Shown: positions 1,023-54,581 of the stretch, in pieces
Position numbering within the stretch: the first letter of the stretch is position 1
How the letters are laid out: every line of letters starts with the position of its first letter
Assembly (NCBI GenBank): GCA_951406725.2
Contig: OX597822.1
Location: 93,372,001-93,436,000 of the forward strand
Length of the DNA stretch: 64,000 bases
Source: Octopus vulgaris
Lineage: Eukaryota
Reading direction: 5' to 3'
Made by a program: the position numbers and the translations under genes
Notes under the pieces: model-generated
What the model saw: only the letters and a program-made list of their open reading frames with translations
The model's database searches: none
Told to the model about the DNA's origin: nothing

Positions 1023-1081
<59 letters not shown>

Positions 1082-1283
1082 GAATGGTTGTATACTGCCA
1101 ATCTAACGTGAACATCACCGCTTTTTAGCCCTAGGAAGAATCGACGCCTCCTGATGGCTTCCATGAGCTAAAAAGCGGTGGTGTAACCCCCTACTGTCAC
1201 GTTCACGTTAGATTGACGTATACAACCATTCTATCGCCCCACCACTGTACATATCTCTATGAGAGATTTAGAAATTTAATAGT

Positions 1284-1348
<65 letters not shown>

Positions 1349-8263: not shown

Positions 8264-9115
<852 letters not shown>

Positions 9116-9223
9116 TAACGATCATTGTGAAAGTGACTGTGTTTTACCAGTAAGCTACCAGGTGTAAACTTTTCATTTTATTATCCAATATATGTATATA
9201 TATATATATTATATATATGTATG

Positions 9224-11694: not shown

Positions 11695-14530
11695 TCATTA
11701 TCATGCAAACGTCGAAGTTATCCAATCCATCAGTCGTAGTGGTTCTGGTGGATATTTATTTTCCTTCTCACAGATCCTACACCCTCCTATCTTCTCGGCA
11801 ATTTGCTTGGTAAGGCCTGGCCACCAAACATTGTCACGCACCAGTGCTCGGCATTTGACGATACCTTGGTGTCCTTCATGTAGACGATCCAATATATCTT
11901 TTTGGAGGTCTGCTGAGATGATGAGTCGGCCCTGATACAGTGAGAGTACCTGATAAACTGTTAGGTACTTGAGTACAAACCGGTAGGCTCTCAATTCCGG
12001 ATTTTGTGTGGCTGCTTCAGGCCAGTGGTCCATCTTGTTGAAATTGATAACTTGACCACAGATTTTATCAGTGCTTTGTTTCTGCCTGATTTTCTCCAGT
12101 CGTTTGTCACTCACGGAGATGTTCTCTATGATAGAACGGACGAATATGTCTGTCTCTGTCTCCTGCTGGAACTCTTGTTTCGGTGGTACGCTGCCAGAAG
12201 CCCTGGATAGGGTGCCTGCTGTAATGAGATTCTTCCCTGCGGTGTTGGTGATCTTGTAGGTGTATCTCATTAAGAGCATGCGGAAACGCTGGATTCTTGG
12301 AGTCAACGCATCGAGTTTAGTCTTTAGCAGTGGTAGTAGAGGTTTGTGATCTGTTTCTGTCTAGAACTTTGGTAGTCCTATTAAGAAGTCAGCAAACTTC
12401 TCACAACACCGCTGCTAATGCTTCCTTCGCAATCTGGGCATATCTCTGCCCTGTATCAGTGAGTGATATCGATGCATAGAATACATGTCTCCAGCTATCT
12501 CCTTCCTTCTGAAGAAGTACTCCACCCAAGCCAAAAGACGATGCATCTGCTGAGACCCTTGTTGGTTTGTCAGCACTATAATGCATCAGTACTGGTGTAG
12601 AGCTCAGTTTTTTTTCAGAGTCCGAAACACTGTTTCTTGAGACTGGTCCCATGTCCATGTAATTTCTGTTTTTTTAGTAGATCCTGAAGTGGCTTAATGT
12701 CTCTGCTAAATTCTCAGCGAATTTGCCAACCTGATTTACCATACCGAGCAACCTTCTTAGCTCAGATACATTTTGTGGTCTGGTCAATTCCTTTATTGCT
12801 TTTACTTTCCCAGGATCTACTTGGATTCCTTCTTTGGATATTATATGACCCATAAATTTCACATCACTAGCACAGAATAAACACATTTCATTTAGTGTTA
12901 GCCCTGCTGCTTTCATTCTTTGTAGTACCTTTTGTACCCTCTGGTCGTGCTCTTGTGTTTTTCCACTGATGACCCCTGGTATTCCTGACACAATCTGTGG
13001 AAAATTTCTGGTTCATAGCATATTCCGAAAGGTAACAGTAAATAATAGAAACACGCATACGGTGTGATGAAAGTGGTAAGTTCCTGTGAGTCTTCATGCA
13101 GAACTTGGCTCCTTCAAGTTCAGCAACAAGTTGATCAGTTGAAGGAAGTGGAAAATTTTTCCTTTTTCACACTTTCGTTTAATTTAGTGTAGTCGACACA
13201 AATCTGACTCTTCCATCTTTTTTGGGGCCGCTACAATGGGAACACACCAGTCTGTCGGGAACTCCACTGGACGGATAATTTTCTCTTTTTCCATTCGCTT
13301 TAACTCTTTCTGAACTTTCTTCTTCATGGGAAGTGGTAGTCGTCCGGGGGCACTGATTGAGAAAGGTTGAGCTGTTTCATTCAAGTGAATTTTGTATACA
13401 TGCCTCAATTTCCTTAGGCCTGTAAACACACTGGAGAAGTCTTTTTTGTATTGAAGAGCTTCACTTTTCATCACATTGATTTTACTTAATAGATTGAGAG
13501 CTTTGATTGCTGGTCCACCTAATAATGGTTAGTTAGTTAGTTAGTTAGTTAATTTGGCTCAAAAGCAAATAGCAAGGCCATGTAGGGGGACATAAAGTTA
13601 AGTACGGGGTGGTGTTCATGTAAAGAGTTCAGGCCACTTGTGGTCAAGGGAGACTTTGAACCGAGCGGTCGTCGGCATCTTCACCATCTCGTCTGGCAGC
13701 TTATTCCACGGATCCGCAACCCGGACGGAGAAAGCTCCTCTCCTTCGATTGAGATGAAATCGTCGCAGGTAGAGCTTTTCGGAGTGACCCCGCAGCCGAC
13801 GCTCTGGAGCAGGAGTGAAGAACAGCTCTTTCGAGAGGTTACACTTTCCGCTTATGATGTTGTGGGCGAGAATGAGATCACCACGGCGGCGGCGTTTTTC
13901 TAGAGAATAAAGGTCGAGCGTCCTCAGCCTTTCTTCATAAGACAAATGTTTGAGACCAAGAACCATGCGGGTAGCCAGCTTCTGGACCCTTTCGAGATGC
14001 TGTATGTCTTTGAGGAGATAAGGAGAAGAGGCTTGAATCCCGTACTCCAATATGGGTTCAGCTAAGTCTTGTACAACGTACAGTTCCTGTTGCGACGTTG
14101 CTTTCCCATAACTCAATGTGGCATCTACGCGTCCAAGTACTTTAGTTTGTGTTGACCTGGTCTATATAACCTTTTGTTTATAGGTTTTATTTTTAATATT
14201 GTAGAATTCTTCCTGAAGAACTGATCAGGTACTACTGTCACATCTGCGCCAGTATCCAGTCTAAATTCGACAATTATGCTGCAGACTTTGGTGGTGACTT
14301 CTATTTTTGCTTGCCATTCTATCTTATTGTCTTCACAAACTGCATTTATATTTTCCGAAGAAACATAACCTAAGAAATGATGTCCTTCCTCTTAAACTCT
14401 CCTAACTCTTGAAAAATTCCTGCAAACAGTTGCGTAGTGTCCTATTTTCGAACACCCTCTGCATCTTGTTGCACTTTCTCTTAGGCATCTTCTTTTTATG
14501 TTGATACCCTTTTTAATTATTTGGTCCTGT
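11695..14530 (-). mobile_element. Decayed Ty3/Gypsy gag-pol (CCHC knuckle, protease, RT, RNase H, integrase Zn finger); no LTRs seen
   Basis: CRGCSKIGHYATVC (~14420-14465), FRLDTGADVTV (~14250-14285), VSADASSFGLGGVLLQ, LHEGHQGIVKCR...VWWPG...CRIC; many frameshifts. Confidence 0.92.
13526..14056 (-). mobile_element. 3' fragment of CR1/L2-type LINE with (TAAC)n tail, inserted in the Gypsy
   Basis: Nearly identical to 28960-29490; the Gypsy frame resumes across it (LAEP|LLGGPA). Confidence 0.93.
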
Positions 14531-14731: not shown

Positions 14732-14814
<83 letters not shown>

Positions 14815-14900
14815 CAATAATAAATCTCTGAGCTAGGTATAAACAGTAGCTGCACGACAATGTGAAGTATATTTGCTACTTAAATGTGGCTAACCACTAA

Positions 14901-15008
14901 GGGTGGATGCTACAGCAGCTTGTAGCCCCAGGAGAACATCTTCTCCGGCTGGCTATTGACACACTTTCTGTGCCCTATCAGTATTTGCAAAGGGAAGCCA
15001 TCCTTCCC
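14901..15008 (-). ncRNA. Unassigned multi-stem motif, copy B
   Basis: Shares junction sequences and helices with 34969-35080 and 44070-44171; strand inferred from G-U pairs. Confidence 0.5.
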
Positions 15009-15035
15009 ATCATCGACCTAACGTGATACGCACGT

Positions 15036-16253
15036 ACCTGAGGATCATCAAATCTTTCCATGATGATATGCAAGGCACCATACAGCACAATGGTTTAACA
15101 TCAACCGCCTTCCAAATAAAAAACGGGGTAAAGCAAGGTTGTGCCCTTGCTCCTACATTATTTGGCATCTTCTTCTCACTGCTGCTGTCACATGCCTTTC
15201 AGACATCAGATGATGGAGTGTTTCTGCACAGTAGAAGTGACGGGAAACTGTTCAATCTCTCGTGTCTGCGTGTCAAGACCAAAATCAGAAGCGTCCTGAT
15301 CAAGGAGGTGCTATTTGCTAATGATGCCGCTCTGGTATCACACACAGAAGAAGCCCTACAAAGGCTCATCAACTGTTTTGAGCAAGCATATAGCGACTTT
15401 GGCTTAGTTATCAGCCTCAAGAAGACCAATATCATGGTTCAGGCTACATCGGACATCCCAAACATACATATTGGAGACTACAGACTACAGGAGGTGGAGA
15501 AGTTTACCTATCTTAGCTCTACCGTAACCTACAACCTATCCCTTGATGCTGAGCTCAATATACGCATTGGCAAGGCAGCTGCTGTGATGGCCCAACTCTC
15601 CAAACGGGCATGGGACAACAATAAGCTGACCAAGACCACAAAAATGAAGATTTACCAGGCATGTGTACTTAGCACTCTAATGTATGAAAGTGAGACTTGG
15701 ACGCCATACACACGCCAACAGCGTCGCCTGAATATCTTTCACCTGCGCTGCCTCCGGGAAATCCTTCGCATCAAATGGCAGAATCATGTCCGCAACAAAG
15801 ATGTCCTCATGCAAGCAGGAATATCAAGCATGTTTGCACTCCTCACACAAAGACGTGTGAGATGGCTTGGACATGTTAGCCGTATGGAAGATGGCAGAAT
15901 CCCCAAGGACATACTCTACGGAGAGCTTGCTAGGGGCACTAGGTCTGTGGGAAGACCGTTCTTACGATACAAGGATGTTTGCAAAAAGCACATGAATGCC
16001 TGCAACATCAATATTACCAACTGGGAAGCAGTTGCCAGCAACCGTGGAGATTGGCGATGTACCGTAAAAGAGGGAACACAACGAGTGATATAGAGAGAGA
16101 GGAGAAATGGAGAACAAGAAAAGACGTCAACAAGAAAGTATGACATTACAACCAGCCAGGCAAAGTCTTCGCTACATTTGCGGCACGTGCCAAAGGGAGT
16201 GTTTGTCCAGGATAGGACTACACAGCCACAGCAGGAGATGTATTAGGACATGA
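15036..16253 (+). pseudogene. 5'-truncated RTE-clade LINE reverse transcriptase
   Basis: GVKQGCALAPTLF; LFANDAAL (catalytic D changed to N); RVRWLGHVSRM; premature stop at 16093, then C-terminal CGTCQRECLSRIGLHSH zinc finger. Confidence 0.92.
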
Positions 16254-16544
16254 AATGTAAAAGCCTGACTAGATTATTTTATGACAGGAACTGAAACAAA
16301 TCAATCGTATATATATGTATATATGTAAGTGTGTGTGTGTCTTTCTCTCTGTGTTTCACCCTCATCACTGCTTCACAACTGCTGTTCATTTATTTACATC
16401 CACTTAACTTACTGGTTTCACAAGAACAAACTAATACAATAAGTACCAGGCTTATCAAATTAAAAAGCATTAGGCTGTCTCATATTTTTGGTTGCCCAAT
16501 CAGTTGTATCTATCAATTTATCTTTGTATGTGTGTGTGTGTGTA

Positions 16545-20488: not shown

Positions 20489-20526
20489 TCTTTTACGTTT
20501 CGAGCCTACGCTCTTCTACAGAAAGA
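20489..20526 (-). ncRNA. Ultra-minimal hammerhead-like motif (variant core)
   Basis: ucuuu-CUGUAGA-a-gagc-guag-gcuc-GAAAC-GUA-aaaga; decayed second copy at ~20072-20109. Confidence 0.65.
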
Positions 20527-21773: not shown

Positions 21774-21914
21774 ACTGTCCACTTTTCGTGTTCAGTCCTT
21801 AATTGTAGTATATATATATATATATATATATAACGTAGGGGGTATTAGCCATCTGAATGTGGCTAGCATATATATATATATATAATCAAAATAAGCAACA
21901 AGAATGACTCCTGT

Positions 21915-22245: not shown

Positions 22246-22574
22246 TAATAAAATATTAGGGAATAAATCCAAACTTACAGGGAAAAATCAGATTTAGGAT
22301 TGAATCCAATTTTATAGTAAAATATTATATTATATTAAATTAGAGATAAAACCACCATTAGGCAAATCATACAATGAAAAACTTAAGCCAATACATAAGA
22401 TTAATTAATTTATATTATTTAAATATATATCAAAATTATTAAAAAAGATAATTAATATAGCACTACGATCGTTTCATGGCTGTTCAATTAGTTCATTAGT
22501 GTTCTTTCAAGCTTATTAACGCTTAACTTAATAAACTGTCCGTTGGTCTTAATTGTTTCATTGCATTAATGAAC

Positions 22575-26770: not shown

Positions 26771-26828
26771 AACTCCTGCTGGGATATGGTCATCATGACT
26801 ACCCCTCTGACAAGGGTACACAAAGTAT

Positions 26829-29402
26829 ATGCAGCACAAACCGTCCTGCGGTATTCTACCCACAAATGCTCAACCTACAACCAAATTCGATGCCGTCTAT
26901 TGCAAGCTGAGCCTATCTGAGTTTTGCCTGCCCGTGTTGGCTGTCTACAGGCCGCCTCTAGCCGACCCCCAGGACGATGCTCATCTACTCGAAGCGATAA
27001 GATTCGTTTCAGCTTCGCATGACTGCTTGGTACTAGGCGACTTCAACGCTCCCACGATCGATTGGCCCGCATCAATTTGTACAACATCTTCCCGGTTCGG
27101 CCAGGCCCTTCTTGACGTGGCTGAAGATTGTTTTCTATCGCAACATGTTGAATATCCGACAAGACATCGGTCTGGGCAGCAGCCATCTATGCTAGATCTG
27201 GTATTCTCCCGCTATCCAAGATCAGTGTCAGACGTATCTGTGTGCGCCCCTCTTGCCAAGAGTGATCATGCGGTCCTGAAGTTCGTCATGCACACAACTT
27301 TTTCCACGCCCACGATTACTTCGCTGCCACGTAGAGTCTTCTCTGCAATTAATCTTGAAATTCTAACCGAGGCTTCCGCGCTTCTGGACTGGCGTTCCCT
27401 GATGACGTTGTCCTCAGTTGACGAACTATGGTCATCCCTCAAAGCATATGTAATCTGTTTGACTGACCAGGCAGTTCCCGTTGGACTTCCCAAGAGGAAG
27501 AAACACAAGCCCTGGGTGACGAAGAAGGTTAAACGAGAACGTCGACTCAGAGATATTGCTTGGGCTGAATTCAAAAATCTGGATTCGACTGCAGCTTTTG
27601 AGGTGTACAAAACTCAACGAGACCGAGCCGTGAAAATTGAAAAGAAAGAACGCTTCAGTTATGAATACAAAATCGCGGCAAATGCCAGTAGCAATCCAAA
27701 AACCTTCTTTGCCCATGTCCAGCGGAATTCCCGCTTGAACAACCAGATTGCAACGTTGGTAGACTCAACAGGCGTATCGATTGAGGACCCTTATCAACAG
27801 AGTCAATTATTTGCCGAGGCTTTTTCAACTATTTTCAAACAAGATGATGGTCGTGAATCCCCTCCATTTGATAGATCGGTACCTCCAATGCTTCGATTGA
27901 TCATCACGCGGGAGCAAGTCAAACGTGTTATTCAAGGCCTCGATGTCAACAAGGGTCACGGCCCTGACGGCATACACCCACGGGTTATCAAAGCGTTGGC
28001 TCCGGTCATCTGCGAGCCCTTTACACGACTATTCAATATGTCATTGGCGACGGGTGTTTTACCTGCAGACTGGAGAACAGCGATAATCTGCCCAATTTTC
28101 AAGAAAGGGAGCCGCGAAGACCCGCTTAACTACCGACCGGTTTCCCTTACATCAATAATCAGCAAGATGTTCGAAACCATCCTTAAGAAAAGTATGATGC
28201 TCCACCTCCTAAACACAGCCTCGATCACTGATTCCCAACACGGCTTCGTGCCGAAGAGATCATGCTTGAGCAACTTACTAGTAATGGAAGAATTGGTGAC
28301 GCGCATCCTCGATGATAGTGATGCTGTTGACATCGTTTTATTGGACTTTGCCAAAGCTTTTGACTCGGTAAACCACCGCCTACTACTTGTCAAGCTTCAA
28401 GCATATAGTTTCCATCCGGATATTGTACGATGGGTTGGTGCCTTCCTCTCAGATCGCTCCTTCCAAGTTCAAGTTAATGGTTCGCGGTCCGACGTCTCCA
28501 GTGCGAGCAGTGGCGTGCCTCAAGGTTCAGTGCTTGGGCCCTTGTTGTTCTTAGTCTTCATAAATGACTTGCCCGACGACCTCACGCAACACACCCTTCT
28601 ATTTGCCGACGATATCAAACTGGTCGCTCCTCGCGGTAGTATAGAGGATCTTCGTCGATGCCTCCACCAAATTTGGAAGTGGTCTAACGATTGGGACCTG
28701 TGTCTGAACGTGTCAAAGTGCTGTCATCTGCCTGTCGGCTCTACTCCTGCAACTCAACTTGATTTCCAGCTGGGTCGTCTGCTGCTGGAGAGGACCGATC
28801 AGGTAAAGGACCTGGGTATCTTGGTGGATTCCTCCTTTTCGCCTTCGGCCCAGTGCGTCCATGCTGCCAACAAAGCGCGCGGAATTCTGTTTTTGATTCG
28901 ACGGTCATTCGGAATGCTCACAGCAGCCATATTCCTGCCACTCTATGTCACGCTGGTGAGACCCATATTGGAGTATGGGATTCAAGCCTCTTCTCCTTAT
29001 CTCCTCAAAGACATACAGCACCTCGAAAGAGTCCAGAGGCTGGCTACCCGCATGGTTCATGGTCTCAAAAATTTGTCCTACGAAGAAAGGCTGAGGACGC
29101 TCGACCTTTGTTCTCTTGAAAAACGCCGCCGCCGTGGTGATCTCATTCTCGCCCACAACATCATAAGCGGGAAGTGTAACCTCTCGAAAGAGCTGTTCTT
29201 CACTCCTGCTCCAGAGCGTCGGCTGCGGGGTCATTCCGAAAAGCTCTACCTGCGACGATTTCATCTCAATCGAAGGAGAGGAGCTTTCTCCGTCCGGGTT
29301 GCGGATCCGTGGAACAAGCTGCCAGACGAGATGGTGAAGATGCCGACGACTGCTTTGTTCAAAGCCTCCCTGGACCTCAAGTGGCCTGAACTCTTTACAT
29401 GA
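26829..29402 (+). CDS. CR1/L2-type LINE ORF2 (partial APE endonuclease + reverse transcriptase), open frame, 5'-truncated
   Basis: VYRPP, LGDFN, LDLVF, SDH (endonuclease); NYRPVSLTS, QHGF, DFAKAFD, GVPQGSVLGP, FADD (RT). The first endonuclease motifs are missing and the ATG appears to come from flanking sequence. Confidence 0.93.
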   Translation: MQHKPSCGILPTNAQPTTKFDAVYCKLSLSEFCLPVLAVYRPPLADPQDDAHLLEAIRFVSASHDCLVLGDFNAPTIDWPASICTTSSRFGQALLDVAEDCFLSQHVEYPTRHRSGQQPSMLDLVFSRYPRSVSDVSVCAPLAKSDHAVLKFVMHTTFSTPTITSLPRRVFSAINLEILTEASALLDWRSLMTLSSVDELWSSLKAYVICLTDQAVPVGLPKRKKHKPWVTKKVKRERRLRDIAWAEFKNLDSTAAFEVYKTQRDRAVKIEKKERFSYEYKIAANASSNPKTFFAHVQRNSRLNNQIATLVDSTGVSIEDPYQQSQLFAEAFSTIFKQDDGRESPPFDRSVPPMLRLIITREQVKRVIQGLDVNKGHGPDGIHPRVIKALAPVICEPFTRLFNMSLATGVLPADWRTAIICPIFKKGSREDPLNYRPVSLTSIISKMFETILKKSMMLHLLNTASITDSQHGFVPKRSCLSNLLVMEELVTRILDDSDAVDIVLLDFAKAFDSVNHRLLLVKLQAYSFHPDIVRWVGAFLSDRSFQVQVNGSRSDVSSASSGVPQGSVLGPLLFLVFINDLPDDLTQHTLLFADDIKLVAPRGSIEDLRRCLHQIWKWSNDWDLCLNVSKCCHLPVGSTPATQLDFQLGRLLLERTDQVKDLGILVDSSFSPSAQCVHAANKARGILFLIRRSFGMLTAAIFLPLYVTLVRPILEYGIQASSPYLLKDIQHLERVQRLATRMVHGLKNLSYEERLRTLDLCSLEKRRRRGDLILAHNIISGKCNLSKELFFTPAPERRLRGHSEKLYLRRFHLNRRRGAFSVRVADPWNKLPDEMVKMPTTALFKASLDLKWPELFT

Positions 29403-34720: not shown

Positions 34721-34968
34721 AAATAAATATTGTCAATTTGTTAGCAGCAACTTGGATTCTGTCAGAGACATAAATTTCAAAGACATACACACATGCAAAC
34801 TACAATACATTTGCAGTACTGCCACTTGGCTGGTCTGGAGAGTAATTTCCTCCATAGTAATTAAAATATCAAAACAATTTCCTGACATCCAGTGGTGGAA
34901 GTTTTAACGAAAATAGTGATATTGATAGAATGGTTGTATACTGTCAATCTAACGTGAACGTGACAGTA

Positions 34969-35080
34969 GGGGGTTACACCACCGCTGTTTAGCCCTAGGA
35001 AGCATCGACGCTTCCTGCTGGCTTCGACACATTTTTCCTGTGTCCTTATATACATTTACGAAGGGGAGATAAACACCCCC
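34969..35080 (-). ncRNA. Unassigned multi-stem motif, copy A
   Basis: On +: ggggg..accgctgtttagcc[taggaagc-atcgac-gcttcctg]ggct tc gacac..gtgtc ctt..acgaagggg..ccccc. Confidence 0.5.
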
Positions 35081-35427
35081 AGCAGCCAGGCGTTATTGAG
35101 AAAATAAGAGTAGGCTTCAGATGTATCCAGTTGAGCCTAGATAGCCTTTGAATGTGAATTTGATATCAGTCAGATAACATCTGATAAACAACAATAGCAA
35201 GACTCACATACACTCAGACTCAGATGTGTTTTCTTCCATCGGCAATGAAGTCCTCAGGTAAAATTCGATTCCCAATGATATTGTACACGACTTTAGAATT
35301 CTTCTTTACCTTACCATGCTGTCAAACATTTTCCTAATTTTCAAACGTCATTCACGCAGTTAATCAATAATGTCAATCAACCAATACTCGTTATAATATT
35401 CAAAGTTTTTGTTATATTTATATTCAA

Positions 35428-37344: not shown

Positions 37345-37413
37345 CACTACGATCGTTTCATGGCTGTCCAATTCGTAATAATTCGAGTTATGGTTACAGT
37401 CAATCTTCAGGTA
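37345..37413 (-). ncRNA. Minimal hammerhead motif (decayed stem II); truncated sister at 22330-22490
   Basis: uac-CUGAAGA-uugacugu...acagccau-GAAAC-gauc-GUA-gug. Confidence 0.7.
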
Positions 37414-42318: not shown

Positions 42319-42381
42319 CCGCGTGTATACCGTTGGCGATTTTTTTCCTCTGTCTTCCCTTCTCTGGATCTTTCCTTCTAT

Positions 42382-42416
42382 GTTTCCGACGAAGAGCTCC
42401 GCTCGAAACGTTGAAC
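42382..42416 (+). ncRNA. Ultra-minimal hammerhead-like motif (variant core)
   Basis: guuu-CCGACGA-a-gagc-ucc-gcuc-GAAAC-GUU-gaac; same architecture as 20489-20526. Confidence 0.62.
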
Positions 42417-42546
42417 CCTCTTTCTTTCCTTCTTTCCTGAGCGTCCAATAATACTATATTTGTTCCACATCCTCGCGTTGTTGTGTTTTTTTGTGCTTTC
42501 ATGTTTGGATTAACTATATATATATATATATATGTGTGTTTATATA

Positions 42547-42709
42547 AGACGGGCTTCTTTCAGTTTCTATCTACTAAATCCACTCACACGGCTTTGATCG
42601 GCCCGAGGCTATAGTAGAAGACACATGACCAAGGTGCCACGCACTGAGACTTAACCTGGAACCATGTGGGTGAGAAACAAACTTCTTACCACATAGCCAC
42701 ATCTTCGCC
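42547..42709 (-). mobile_element. SINE S2 head
   Basis: Reverse complement of 33819-33980. Confidence 0.8.
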
Positions 42710-43352
42710 TCTCACTGTAAGTTAATATCATCAGGTGTATGTTACTATTTTAAAGGTGAGTCCCTATTTGAAATCGTACGCCAGTATCACAAAGAAGTGG
42801 AGCTCTCTGTCGGTCTAAGGTAATACTAGAAGGATGAGGCCCTTTCTGTCACTGTAAGTTAATATTATAAATCTAATGAAGGTGTGACACTGTCCCTCAT
42901 TGCAATTTAGTCCAGTGATGGTGTTGCCCTTTTTCTCATTGTAAGTCTATCTAACGGGGACGTGGCCCTCTCTGTCATTATAAACCAGTATTATAAAGAT
43001 GTGGCCATTTCTGTGATTGTAAATTAATATCATAAAAATATGGTCCTTTCTGTCACTATAAGTCAATTTTATAAAGACGTTGACCCCTTCATTGTCATTT
43101 AATCTAGTGAAGATGTGGCCCTTTTTTCTCATTGTAAGTTAATGTAATGAAAGCGTAGCCCTTTCTCTCATTTCAAGTTAATCTAATGAAGACGTGGCAC
43201 TTTCTGTCACTATAAGTTAATATTATAAAGATGTGTCCCCTTTCTGTCATTGTAAGTTAATATTATATAAAGATGTGGCCCTTTCTATCATCGTTATTTA
43301 ATCTAATGAAGATGTAACCCCTTCTGTCATTGTAAACTAATCTGGTAAAGAC
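42705..43352. repeat. Diverged ~40-42 bp minisatellite, about 15 copies
   Basis: gtggccctttctgtcattgtaagttaat(attataa/ctaatga)agat unit. Confidence 0.88.
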
Positions 43353-43543
43353 ACGTAGATGAAGTATGTCTAATATTTTATCTATGTTTTGTCTGATTTT
43401 ATTTCTCACCGTCATGGCTGTTAATTTTATTTACACATGGATAAATATCTTATTTGTCAATTTTCTCTCTCTCTCTTACTCTTATTATCATCTCTCTATT
43501 TTTTCATTCCTTGTATATGTATCTGTTTGTCTATCAATGTTTC

Positions 43544-43808: not shown

Positions 43809-43847
<39 letters not shown>

Positions 43848-43899
43848 ATATATATCAATAATAATTCTCTAAAAGGAATATAGACAGTAACTGCTCGAC

Positions 43900-44221
43900 A
43901 ACATAAGGGACTAAAGCCATCTGAATATGGCTAGGGACAGGGCAGGGTGGTGGGGGTGTTACTGTTGCATTTCAGGCGAACATCGACGTCACCAGAAAGG
44001 CTCGACACCGTCACGGTGCCCTAAACCTGCAAAGGGAGGTAATTCCCCGATGAAGCGGAAACCACACACGGGGAATTACCTCCCTTTGCAGGTTTAGGGC
44101 ACCGTGACGGTGTCGAGCCTTTCTGGTGACGTCGATGTTCGCCTGGGGCTAAATGCAACAGTAACACCCCCACCACCCTGCCCTGTCCCTAGCCATATTC
44201 AGATGGCTTTAGTCCCTTATG

Positions 44222-44223
<2 letters not shown>
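43900..44223. repeat. Near-perfect ~150-bp-arm palindrome carrying unassigned motif copy C in both arms
   Basis: 43900-44048 is the reverse complement of 44070-44223 apart from a 5-nt indel; 21-nt spacer; abuts (TA)n. Confidence 0.95.
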
Positions 44224-44266
<43 letters not shown>

Positions 44267-46340: not shown

Positions 46341-46964
46341 GCACGCACACGTACATGTTTGTATACATACGTGAACAGTTGTTTGACTAAGTTTAAACTT
46401 AATCTAAAACTCTGAGACCAATTACAAGTACCATTTCCTCCCAGACTGTCTGTGGGTTCACCTGGGGGCAAATGCAACAAGACTTCAAAGCACACTTTCC
46501 TTCTAAAGTTTCAACTACTGTATACCAATATATATACATAAATGGTTATCGTAAACACATTCTCCCTTAGCAATCCCTTACTCTCAAATCGCCTTCAATA
46601 TTTCGTTAAAGCGAGCTCCTCAATATGTATGTAATAATAAAGTGTCTGTTTATCTTATTGGCTGCTTGTTGTTAGATCTCGTTTGATAGTATCTCTGTAA
46701 TGTTCTAGGGTGGTGGCACTAACATAAGTCTCTGTTCTGCTAGTACTAGATTCTAGGTTAGTGATGTAATTGTATCATTCTGTATACATTAATAACTCAA
46801 GGTTCTCAGGGTATGGTATGCATATTCGAAATATATTGGGTATATATCACCACACATGCATTGAAAATCATGAAATAATGATTTAATATTTTCATTTATA
46901 ATCAACATATTGATTGCAATTTACTCCAGTTAATTTTAAATGATCTCATTAAGTTACTATCGTG

Positions 46965-52585: not shown

Positions 52586-52698
52586 TCTCTCTAAATACAC
52601 ACACACACACACACACATATATATAGTATATAGATATATATCATATGAGTGTGAAAGGGTGTGCGGTCCCAGGCTGCTTGTTTGAATATATCTAATAA

Positions 52699-53101
52699 TA
52701 ATAATAACAACAATACCAGGATGGAATTTATTAATATTTAATACATCGCTACGTATGTTTCCACAGCTCATATGATTTTGACATCAGAGTCGATATCCTT
52801 GGGATTATCCGTGGGCATCATCATTGATCGATTTCATCAGGCGATACTATATAATTGGATGAATCATACAGGAATGTTTGCCAGTATGTTAAGAAGGGAT
52901 ACACATTACTCTGTGATTCATCCAACTATACAGTATCGCCTGATGAAATGAATCAATGATGATACCCACGGATAATACGGACTCTACTGTACTAATCCCA
53001 AGGGTATCGACTCTGATGTCAAAATCATGTGCTCTGTGGAAACGTACGTAGCGATATATTAAATATGAATAAATTCCATCCTGGTATTATTGTTATTATT
53101 A
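52699..53101. repeat. ~170-190-bp-arm inverted repeat with a hammerhead-like motif in each arm
   Basis: 52699-52866 vs 52914-53101. Confidence 0.92.
52934..53056 (+). ncRNA. Hammerhead-like motif with atypical expanded domain II
   Basis: uaucgc-CUGAUGA-(92 nt)-GAAAC-guac-GUA-gcgaua; mirror copy on the minus strand at ~52744-52846. Confidence 0.68.
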
Positions 53102-53125
53102 TATTTGTCCCACATTATATTGGTA

Positions 53126-54417
53126 CGAGGGGCGTTCAATAAGTAATGCCCCTGACCCACTTTCCATAGCAGTAGAGCAACGAAACTTGGCACAGTTATT
53201 AGTCTTTTTCTGCATAGGAACCACCCAGAGTTATGCATTTCTCCCCTCGTTTGATGCAGCTCTGGAGACCGTTTTTGTAGAAGACCCCAGCTTGGTCCTC
53301 CAACCACGACGTGACTTCAGAAATCAAGGCTGCATCATCTGGGAAACGCTTTCCTTTCAAAAACAACTTCATGGCAGGGGAGAGGTGAAAATCAGAGGGT
53401 GCAAGGTCAGGAGAGTAGGGGGGATGGGGGAGGAGTTCATAGCCACACGCTTGTGCTTCTGATCTGGCGACACGCGAGTTGTGGACCGGAGCGTTGTCCT
53501 GCAGGAGGAGGATGCCTTTACTGATCTTGCCCCGCCTCTTGATTTTGATAGCTTCTCTTAATTTCCTCAAAAGTGAAGCATAATAGGCTCCTGTAATTGT
53601 GGTACCCTTTGCCAGGAAATCTGTCATCACTACTCCGTCCTGGTCCCAGAAGACTGTGAGCATGACCCTGCCAGCGGAGGGCTGCACCCTTGCCTTCTTT
53701 GGAGGAGGTGAGTCACGGTGCTTCCACTGCATTGACTGGGCTTTGGTCTTTGGATCATGGTGATGGACCCAGGTTTCATCCTGTGTAATCAGTCTTTTGA
53801 AAAAATTTGACTCATCTTCTTGGCACATCTCCAAATTCATCCTCGAGCACTTGACGCGTTCTTGCTTCTGGAAAGGTGTGAGCAACCTGGGAATCCATCT
53901 GGCAGACACCTTTTGCATATGCAAATGGTCATGAATGATAGTTTCCACAGACTCGGTACTAATCTTGACCTCATGGGCTATTTGGCGAATAGTTATGCGT
54001 CGGTCTTCCAAAATGGCAGCCTCAACTTGACGGACAGATGCCTCATCAATGGCAGAAGGGGGCGACCACATCTGGGAGCTGTTTCCACAGAGTTCCGACC
54101 ATGTTTGAATTCACGATGCCAGCGTTTTACAAGGTCATATGATGGGGCATCATCACCATAAGTTACTTTCATTTCATCAAAAGTCTCCTGTGGTGTGCGT
54201 CCTTTCAAATACAAAAACCGGATCACTGCTTGACACTCAACAGGCTCCATTTCAGACTTGACTCAGTTTAAACACCTGTAAATCAGAAACCACAATTAGT
54301 TCAGAGCTGTAATTTGCTACTTCATCTATAGAGATATCAATACTTGCACATGCAAAATTTCAGCTAGATCAAATAACTGCAAGTGGGACAGGAGCATTAC
54401 TTATTGAACGTCCCTCG
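53126..54417 (-). mobile_element. Full-length mariner (DD34D-type) transposon; transposase split by one frameshift
   Basis: TA TSDs; TIRs cgaggggcgttcaataagtaatgc; WIPRLL, TQDETW, QDNAPVH, YSPDLAPSD in ORFs 53993-54250 and 53199-54071. Confidence 0.96.
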
Positions 54418-54581
54418 TATAGCCATTATGCAACCAAGAAAATCTGATTCACCAGTCTGTATTATTAAACAGTAGCCAGCATGATAAAATATGACCTTTA
54501 TTTTCAAACCCCTAACATTACCTAAGGGAATTTAAAAGATATATAAGTGTGTACATACATGCTCGAACATATATATATATA

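Follow-up and report, generated by a model that had tools for sequence, protein, structure and literature searches.

The window analysed here is a 64,000-nt stretch of Octopus vulgaris DNA, AT-rich animal sequence that is dense in microsatellites. At positions 43900 to 44223 it contains a palindrome with a GC content of 54%, compared with 36% for the window as a whole, in agreement with the original description of it as GC-rich. Self-complementarity comparison places the left arm at 43900..44049 on the minus strand and the right arm at 44069..44223 on the plus strand, with a 19-nt spacer between them. The arms are exact reverse complements over 73 + 77 nt, in two blocks (43900-43972/44151-44223 and 43973-44049/44069-44145) that are each 100% complementary. 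Five bases in the right arm (44146-44150) are unpaired, and the corresponding deletion lies at 43972..43973 in the left arm. The palindrome had been described as free of substitutions and interrupted by this deletion only, and the assembly bears this out: the arm alignment comprises 150 bases with no substitution and one 5-nt gap. The 95% upper bound on arm divergence from 0 substitutions in 150 bases is about 2%.

The inserted unit is larger than the palindrome. The extent first proposed, 43900..44223, is correct for the arms, but the left copy continues through a 44-nt tail to 43856. This left copy (43856..44071, minus strand) is a 5'-truncated element end of 216 nt with a tail, and is represented among sequencing contigs by X2 record 10, X3 record 11 and X11 record 9. 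The right copy (44069..44223, plus strand) is a 5'-truncated end of 155 nt without a tail, and it stops at the same boundary as a related stump at 21832-21866. The tail (43856..43899, minus strand) is of the type found in Penelope-like elements (PLEs) and occurs on the left copy only. The target is a (TA)n microsatellite, seen at 43845..43855 on the left and at 44224..44263 on the right. The left copy meets it after the tail at 43856, and the right copy abuts it directly.

Contigs of four of 24 sequencing runs (X1, X2, X3 and X11) were compared with the element over the range 44015-44226, which takes in neither the tail nor the site of the deletion nor the flanks. At least half of the element's words are contained in 20 of the 24 runs, from eight studies and four organism labels; none of the 24 is recorded as RNA and all four compared runs are contigs. 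The element is matched by 948 X1 contigs, which indicates a high copy number. Contigs from X2 and X3 are identical to the element over 157 + 22 nt and one X11 contig over 57 + 122 nt, with no differing letter. These exact matches over about 180 nt come from contigs carrying three different organism labels. Because the arms have no substitutions and the contigs match letter for letter across three organism labels, the palindrome copy is young, as had been predicted. Among the 20 of 963 contig pieces listed (and 16 of 60 loose ends) none bridges the centre of the palindrome, and the 5-nt deletion is absent among the contig indels listed.

Related copies and the marks of a Penelope-like element

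Several related copies of the focal palindrome (A) are present in the window. Copy B (14812..15037, minus strand) belongs to a diverged lineage, 66% alike over the conserved motif described below, and has a tail. Copy C (34924..35082, minus strand) represents another diverged lineage and is a single copy without a tail. Both were recovered by a motif descriptor and by R1, a model of the motif. Palindrome D (1080..1288), found by R1 and by alignment, belongs to the C lineage and has the same layout of head-to-head copies with a tail on one arm, although its arms are diverged, unlike the identical arms of A. A 35-nt stump of a related family (21832..21866, minus strand), found by sequence comparison, ends at the no-tail boundary inside (TA)n. 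The same no-tail boundary recurs in copy C and in the direct arm of D. Uninverted single copies also exist, namely B, C and X11 record 9. Four of the five copies end in (TA)n (A, B, D and the stump); C does not.

The tail of A aligns with that of copy B at a score reached by none of 2000 shuffles, and with that of D at a score reached by 4 of 2000. It also appears as loose ends behind 44225 in three of the four runs compared (X1, with 10 contigs, X2 and X11). About 15 nt before the no-tail end there is a terminal hairpin (44191..44208, plus strand; predicted fold) that recurs in the 21832-21866 stump. By comparison with PMC11167929 it would be a candidate start region for reverse transcriptase (RT).

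In the literature, PLE insertions are recognised by an inverted 5'-truncated copy, by a tail of 30-40 nt on one side and by their (TA)n target (PMC8557442, PMC3846280, PMC8969392). The insertions of endonuclease-bearing PLEs (PMC3846280; PMC8557442) resemble the octopus palindrome in having a head-to-head inverted 5'-truncated copy, a 30-44-nt tail on one arm, a microsatellite target and an overlap at the joint. The octopus palindrome differs in being only about 370 bp long, in lacking a coding part, and in that its tail-bearing copy ends at a predicted hammerhead cut. Judged from such sequence features, membership of the PLEs is highly probable. In endonuclease-bearing PLEs a telomerase-like RT and a GIY-YIG endonuclease share one frame. 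No RT or GIY-YIG frame among the open reading frames in the window could be linked to the element copies, and upstream of copy C all three minus-strand frames are closed. Of the partial tandem that makes up a pLTR the window contains stumps only. Membership is therefore argued from RNA and DNA features. These features alone would not fix the clade, since the clades are told apart by protein motifs (DKT, CxC, CCHH and a linker Zn finger), and Hydra and Neptune are equally possible.

A preference for (TA)n is a feature of the Hydra, Neptune and Naiad clades (PMC8557442). The cephalopod Naiads (PMC8557442 File S5) share the (TA)n target, the tail and inverted copies with the octopus family. By eye, the 3' ends of Naiad_Ovul and Naiad_Obim also contain a GACAC/GUGUC hairpin, then GA and later a GGGGC block, in the same order as the conserved motif. 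The Naiads differ in lacking canonical hammerheads, and in cephalopods they have reportedly been inactive for a long time, in contrast to the young family of the octopus palindrome.

Three further observations concern these copies or sequences near them. Copy B stands head to head with a 5'-truncated LINE frame at 14960-16093 (plus strand), which we take to be RTE-like, and the pair (14812-16300) is bounded by (TA)n. The pair may be the joint of two cDNAs from different elements, or the result of a later insertion. A 24-nt match at 46456 is not recovered by R1 and is doubtful. At 8400-9117 three copies of one element end, inverted and direct, surround a (TA)n run; they contain a GACAC/GUGUC hairpin like that of the motif, and R1 misses them.

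A conserved motif of about 100 nt

The intact copy of the motif lies at 44070..44172 (plus strand) and was delimited by descriptor, alignment and folding. It comprises a closing stem of a G-run and a C-run (P1), the crossing helices CCCU/AGGG and UUGC/GCAA, a GRCAC/GUGUC hairpin and an AGCC/GGCU-based hairpin (P4). Copies A, B and C are all recovered by a single descriptor. R1 also detects the left arm and D, and picks up no other lineage within the window. Within the palindrome R1 finds 44070-44172 (plus strand) and 43951-44048 (minus strand), so the expectation that the motif is present twice was correct. The 5-nt deletion removes the 3' strand of the AGCC/GGCU helix at the base of P4 in the left copy, which was rightly thought to be broken.

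The motif lineages are about 66-73% alike and retain the helices. In the RNAalifold structure of three lineages, UUGC/GCAA closes two hairpins. By hand, CCCU/AGGG crosses the UUGC/GCAA helix in all three copies, and the G-run/C-run stem is able to close the unit. In the MAFFT alignment 7 of 22 pairs are changed on both sides, a count matched in 3 of 500 shuffles, but there are only three sequences and the structure was derived from the same ones. Two of the seven both-sides pairs reflect a shifted register, and by hand that helix is invariant. Read variants in family contigs contain GACAC/GUGUC alongside GGCAC/GUGUC. Single-sequence folding gives the two hairpins good support (0.76-0.99), as do these read variants, and the long-range helices reach at most 0.40. 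A competing fold in A and B consists of a 5' hairpin and a 3' URGGG/CCCYA stem. Copy A folds no better than its shuffles (z -0.53), and copy C folds equally well on the other strand (-2.90 vs -2.43).

The motif had been called unassigned, and this stands. It is conserved across three lineages, and no Rfam ribozyme family matches it up to E 10 in three scans (14, 1 and 4 matches); the 14 matches of the first are only miRNA-type hairpins below the gathering score. A scan of the whole window gave 457 Rfam matches, and the 150 listed are dominated by microsatellites. Scans of public collections returned 0, 0, 0 and 3 loci from viral sets, 4 from metagenomes, and 0 and 22 from prokaryote genomes. 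None of these 29 loci passes R1 at E 0.01 (the best reaches 0.02 and is without P4), and they were treated as chance matches. The metagenome scan was narrow because its search pattern matches copy A alone in the window and not B or C. The order of parts presumably fits none of the twister, hatchet, pistol and HDV-like ribozymes.

The palindrome centre and a predicted upstream hammerhead

Single contigs from X2, X3 and X11 carry the left-arm strand, run through 44050-44071 and then depart from the window sequence. In three of the four runs contigs thus connect 44050-44071 with the left-arm strand, which makes the spacer the 5' portion of the left, minus-strand copy and not a stretch leading into the right arm; the X1 pieces listed are uninformative on its strand. 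The two copies share a 3-nt overlap, CGG, at 44069..44071. The nearest CCG to the end of the left copy is at 44047, and the only other one is at 44008. The CGG/CCG overlap and the use of the nearest CCG explain the start of the right copy at the G-run.

The loose ends of X2, X3 and X11 past 44071 contain 30 letters, which on the element strand read A(U/C)GA, U, a 3-bp AGG/CCU helix II, U, GAAAC, palindromic CAUG and GU, to which the window adds C. The runs disagree at a single letter, the free N7. These letters fit hammerhead positions A6 to H17; C3 to G5 and the 5' strand of helix I lie beyond them. The base of helix II is U.U instead of the usual G-C, and a U.U at this place has been described in an axolotl hammerhead (PMC7229834). 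The family is thus predicted to carry a minimal type I hammerhead-type motif directly upstream of the left copy. The motif is absent from the window and was read from the loose ends of three runs, with the predicted cut, after GUC, between 44071 and 44070 on the minus strand. Its layout equals that of Hydra-clade hammerheads (PMC8557442 File S2) and of minimal dimer-type hammerheads (PMC4209133). Like the predicted octopus motif, the Hydra-clade and other minimal type I hammerheads of PLEs have a short helix II flanked by an extra U on each side and a palindromic helix III, lie with their site some 215 nt from the 3' end, and go with a preference for (TA)n; Hydra-1_Obim has a similar helix III. 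The downstream motif of about 100 nt was not seen by eye in two Hydra consensus ends or by word searches in the available supplement of PMC8557442.

It is somewhat more probable than otherwise that the left copy ends at the ribozyme cut, to judge by the predicted site. The joint permits four crossover positions, one of which is the predicted cut. By our own arithmetic the chance of such a coincidence is about 1.5% under a uniform model with 270-290 nt of known element length, and it is a single event. The end of copy B falls within a few bases of a look-alike site but retains 2-3 bases upstream of it and has no visible hammerhead. No second copy of the A-family hammerhead was found above chance in the window.

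The inversion had been described as beginning exactly at the 5' edge of the closing stem, and the right arm indeed starts one base before the G-run. This start is explained by microhomology, and a link to P1 finds no support. Of the two motif-bearing palindromes only one breaks at P1, and the sister at 1080-1288 joins through a 5-nt overlap. Since this joint lies inside P4, the result leans toward refuting the proposed link between P1 and the breakpoints. The suggestion of a processed RNA 5' end or an RT stop at P1 is retained in part: a processed end at the centre is possible, but it would be that of the left copy and would lie at the predicted hammerhead cut, some 22 nt upstream of the G-run. 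An RT stalled by the stem would be expected to stop on its 3' side and not at its 5' edge. The RNA originally proposed for testing, 44049-44223 (plus strand), fuses the antisense of the leader with the motif in sense orientation and does not correspond to any natural RNA of the element; its right-arm part, 44069-44223, is intact.

The spacer had been noted as faintly hammerhead-like. On the plus strand CCGAUGA..GAAAC has C at position 4, a 4-nt linker in place of helix II and no helix I partner, and neither the descriptor scan nor Rfam picks up this strand as a hammerhead. Because the spacer belongs to the left, minus-strand copy, this reading is on the strand opposite to the element RNA. A minus-polarity, viroid-like hammerhead was rejected, as helices I and II are lacking.

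In the element RNA the spacer is instead complementary to a hammerhead core. By a pairing test the anti-core segment (44047..44064, minus strand) is antisense to GAAAC (44062-44058) and then to CUGAUGA (44053-44047). All 12 of 12 pairs can form with the core, a result equalled in 4 of 5000 shuffles and 1 of 4740 tiles in a post hoc test that assumes the unseen CUG. Copy B scores 10/12 and copy C 11/12, the latter over a longer stretch. With the C at N7 in X11, one pair of the proposed lock is lost. Because the segment holds no mirror image of the variable helix II, a selected lock would be favoured over a relic inversion. An antisense leader that keeps the hammerhead off in intact monomers is a plausible candidate, at somewhat under even chances, from the complementarity observed. 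For plant retrozymes and viroids, blocking of the core by a complementary segment has been described, and most animal retrozymes are said to lack it (PMC7229834). The plant LTR retrozymes and hammerhead viroids differ in being circular RNAs.

Other hammerhead-like sequences were observed in the window. At 35226-35258 (minus strand), about 150-170 nt upstream of copy C, lies a decayed hammerhead-like motif whose helix II has 4 bp and in which A replaces G12. A minimal hammerhead-like motif at 42378-42420 (plus strand) has C for U at core position 4 and a 4-bp helix I, and a similar one occurs at 20521 (minus strand). A palindrome at 52698-53102, with arms 80% alike, has a hammerhead-like motif and a palindromic helix III near each outer end and belongs to a different PLE-like family. 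Two copies of a GAAAC-GATC-GTA hammerhead-like half at 22465-22479 and 37349-37363 (minus strand) represent another family.

Origin of the palindrome and of its parts

As a structure, the palindrome is what PLE insertion ordinarily leaves; these elements routinely insert as head-to-head pairs. It is probably a recent insertion of the 3' end (the pLTR part) of an endonuclease-bearing PLE into a (TA)n microsatellite, with one copy ending at the predicted hammerhead cut. In such an insertion the PLE protein would cut the (TA)n target on both strands, and the element RNA would be copied from two internal start sites. The tail-bearing cDNA, begun at the distal site, would run to the 5' end of the hammerhead-cut RNA and stop there. 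Its 3' CG(G) would pair with the nearest CCG (44047), where the tail-less copy would begin, and this second copy would end at the proximal start site. The 5-nt loss could go back to a slip during synthesis of one cDNA, or to a deletion that occurred afterwards. Two separately primed cDNAs stand at about even odds, slightly ahead of the fold-back of one cDNA, which is also quite conceivable. Two primed cDNAs account for the exact no-tail end, which is common to uninverted copies, and for the one-sided deletion. Fold-back accounts for the use of the nearest CCG, and the cDNA end alone is without a stable hairpin; self-priming on an antisense template has been proposed for joints of this kind (PMC3846280).

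The Anolis PLE Poseidon provides the closest experimental comparison for these parts (PMC11167929). In that element the tail is the stretch between two internal sites at which the RT starts. Both strands of the target undergo cutting and extension, and the region bound by the protein lies immediately 3' of the hammerhead. The octopus element would likewise have a hammerhead, a downstream RNA region and two internal RT start sites defining the tail. The Anolis system differs in having a coding binding region, for which the available text gives no structural model. Cleavage is dispensable for insertion in vitro, and no RNA-seq reads begin at the cut (PMC11167929). The octopus motif sits between the predicted hammerhead and the candidate RT start sites, where the Anolis binding region maps, and from this position it is guessed to be an RT-binding signal. 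With chances that we put at about even, the motif is a candidate cis-signal, a structure bound by the PLE RT-endonuclease.

Other explanations share part of this account. The insertion may be the same but the left end an ordinary truncation beside the helix III palindrome, with the hammerhead uninvolved and the motif a neutral folded UTR or promoter. This is a less likely reading, though one of some weight: there is one event only, with no clear repeat at D or B, palindromic helix III could stall or release the RT, the fold of copy A is unremarkable, and Anolis PLE hammerhead mutants insert normally in vitro (PMC11167929). It has to accommodate the coincidence calculated above under the uniform model, a joint that excludes the palindrome self-priming would likely use, and the retention of helices between lineages this far apart. 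A non-autonomous retrozyme or SINE-like RNA is unlikely, and would differ from the PLE reading only in whether the parent is autonomous. It would be a hammerhead-bounded monomer of 250-400 nt moved by a PLE protein, with the motif and anti-core forming part of a self-paired circular RNA. The element is short, GC-rich, structured and of high copy number (the 948 X1 contigs), no frame was found, blocked hammerheads are known in plant retrozymes and viroids (PMC7229834), and animal retrozymes derive from PLE pLTRs (bioRxiv 2026.07.22.740005). However, tandem monomers with a hammerhead were sought and none occur in the window, the hammerhead is of the minimal PLE type, and the tail and inverted copy are PLE features. 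A tRNA-derived SINE was rejected separately, with 0 ARAGORN genes in the window and no tRNA among the Rfam matches, a weak test for decayed heads.

The original view, that the motif is a self-cleaving ribozyme of an unlisted class or permutation whose 5' edge is a processed RNA end, appears improbable. In its favour, the fold is compact and multi-helical, with a pair of helices that cross, hairpins that covary and short single-stranded blocks that are conserved; retroelement ends are common sites for ribozymes, and the right copy does start at the 5' edge of the motif. The two pseudoknots of twister may be similar. Against this stand the lack of any Rfam ribozyme family up to E 10, the hammerhead that the element already has, the breakpoints of D inside the motif and the explanation of the right copy's start by microhomology; in addition, PMC10085705 found no promising further twister permutations. 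It is very improbable that the palindrome is a fold-back artefact of the library or the assembly, or a MITE-like DNA element. In favour of such readings, the arms are identical, and among the contigs listed the centre is unbridged and the deletion absent. Nevertheless there is no mirroring of the flanks, and the right arm stops where tail-less copies of the family naturally end. Private to the left arm are a deletion and, against X2 and X11, 1-2 substitutions in the tail. D has the same anatomy with diverged arms, and B, C and X11 record 9 are uninverted. A recent PLE insertion is the reading that we prefer.

Palindromic PLE stumps with tails and hammerheads are already known. In open sources, including the accessible parts of PMC11662667, PMC10085705 and bioRxiv 2026.07.22.740005, no report was found of the downstream motif, of an anti-core leader in PLEs or of inverted copies ending at the cut; subscription journals, Repbase and Dfam are outside this scope. 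The role of PLE hammerheads is regarded as an open question (PMC4209133, PMC8557442). In a young, abundant family with inverted copies ending at the cut, this role would be testable from genome data by counting where copies begin.

An RNA domain whose structure persists in diverged lineages of PLEs would be a first candidate cis-signal of the sister-group RT of telomerase. Telomerase binds the pseudoknot of its RNA, and the RT of PLEs is telomerase-related. We speculate, as an unlikely reading, that the 3' end of PLE RNA is a conserved switchable unit of about 270 nt made up of the hammerhead, the antisense lock and an RT-bound pseudoknotted three-way domain. The cut RNA would then be the template in vivo, recorded at each palindrome centre, and in the boldest form of this idea the domain would be a second ribozyme, of an undescribed kind.

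Other repeats in the window belong to different classes. An 863-codon open frame at 26811-29402 (plus strand) has endonuclease- and RT-like motifs and a near-identical 3' piece at 13616-14161; we take it to be a CR1/L2-type LINE. A 303-codon transposase-like frame, presumably mariner-like, lies at 53199-54110 (minus strand) between 39-nt inverted repeats at 53124-53162 and 54381-54419. Just upstream of the palindrome, 42700-43360 is a decayed tandem array with a 39-nt unit.
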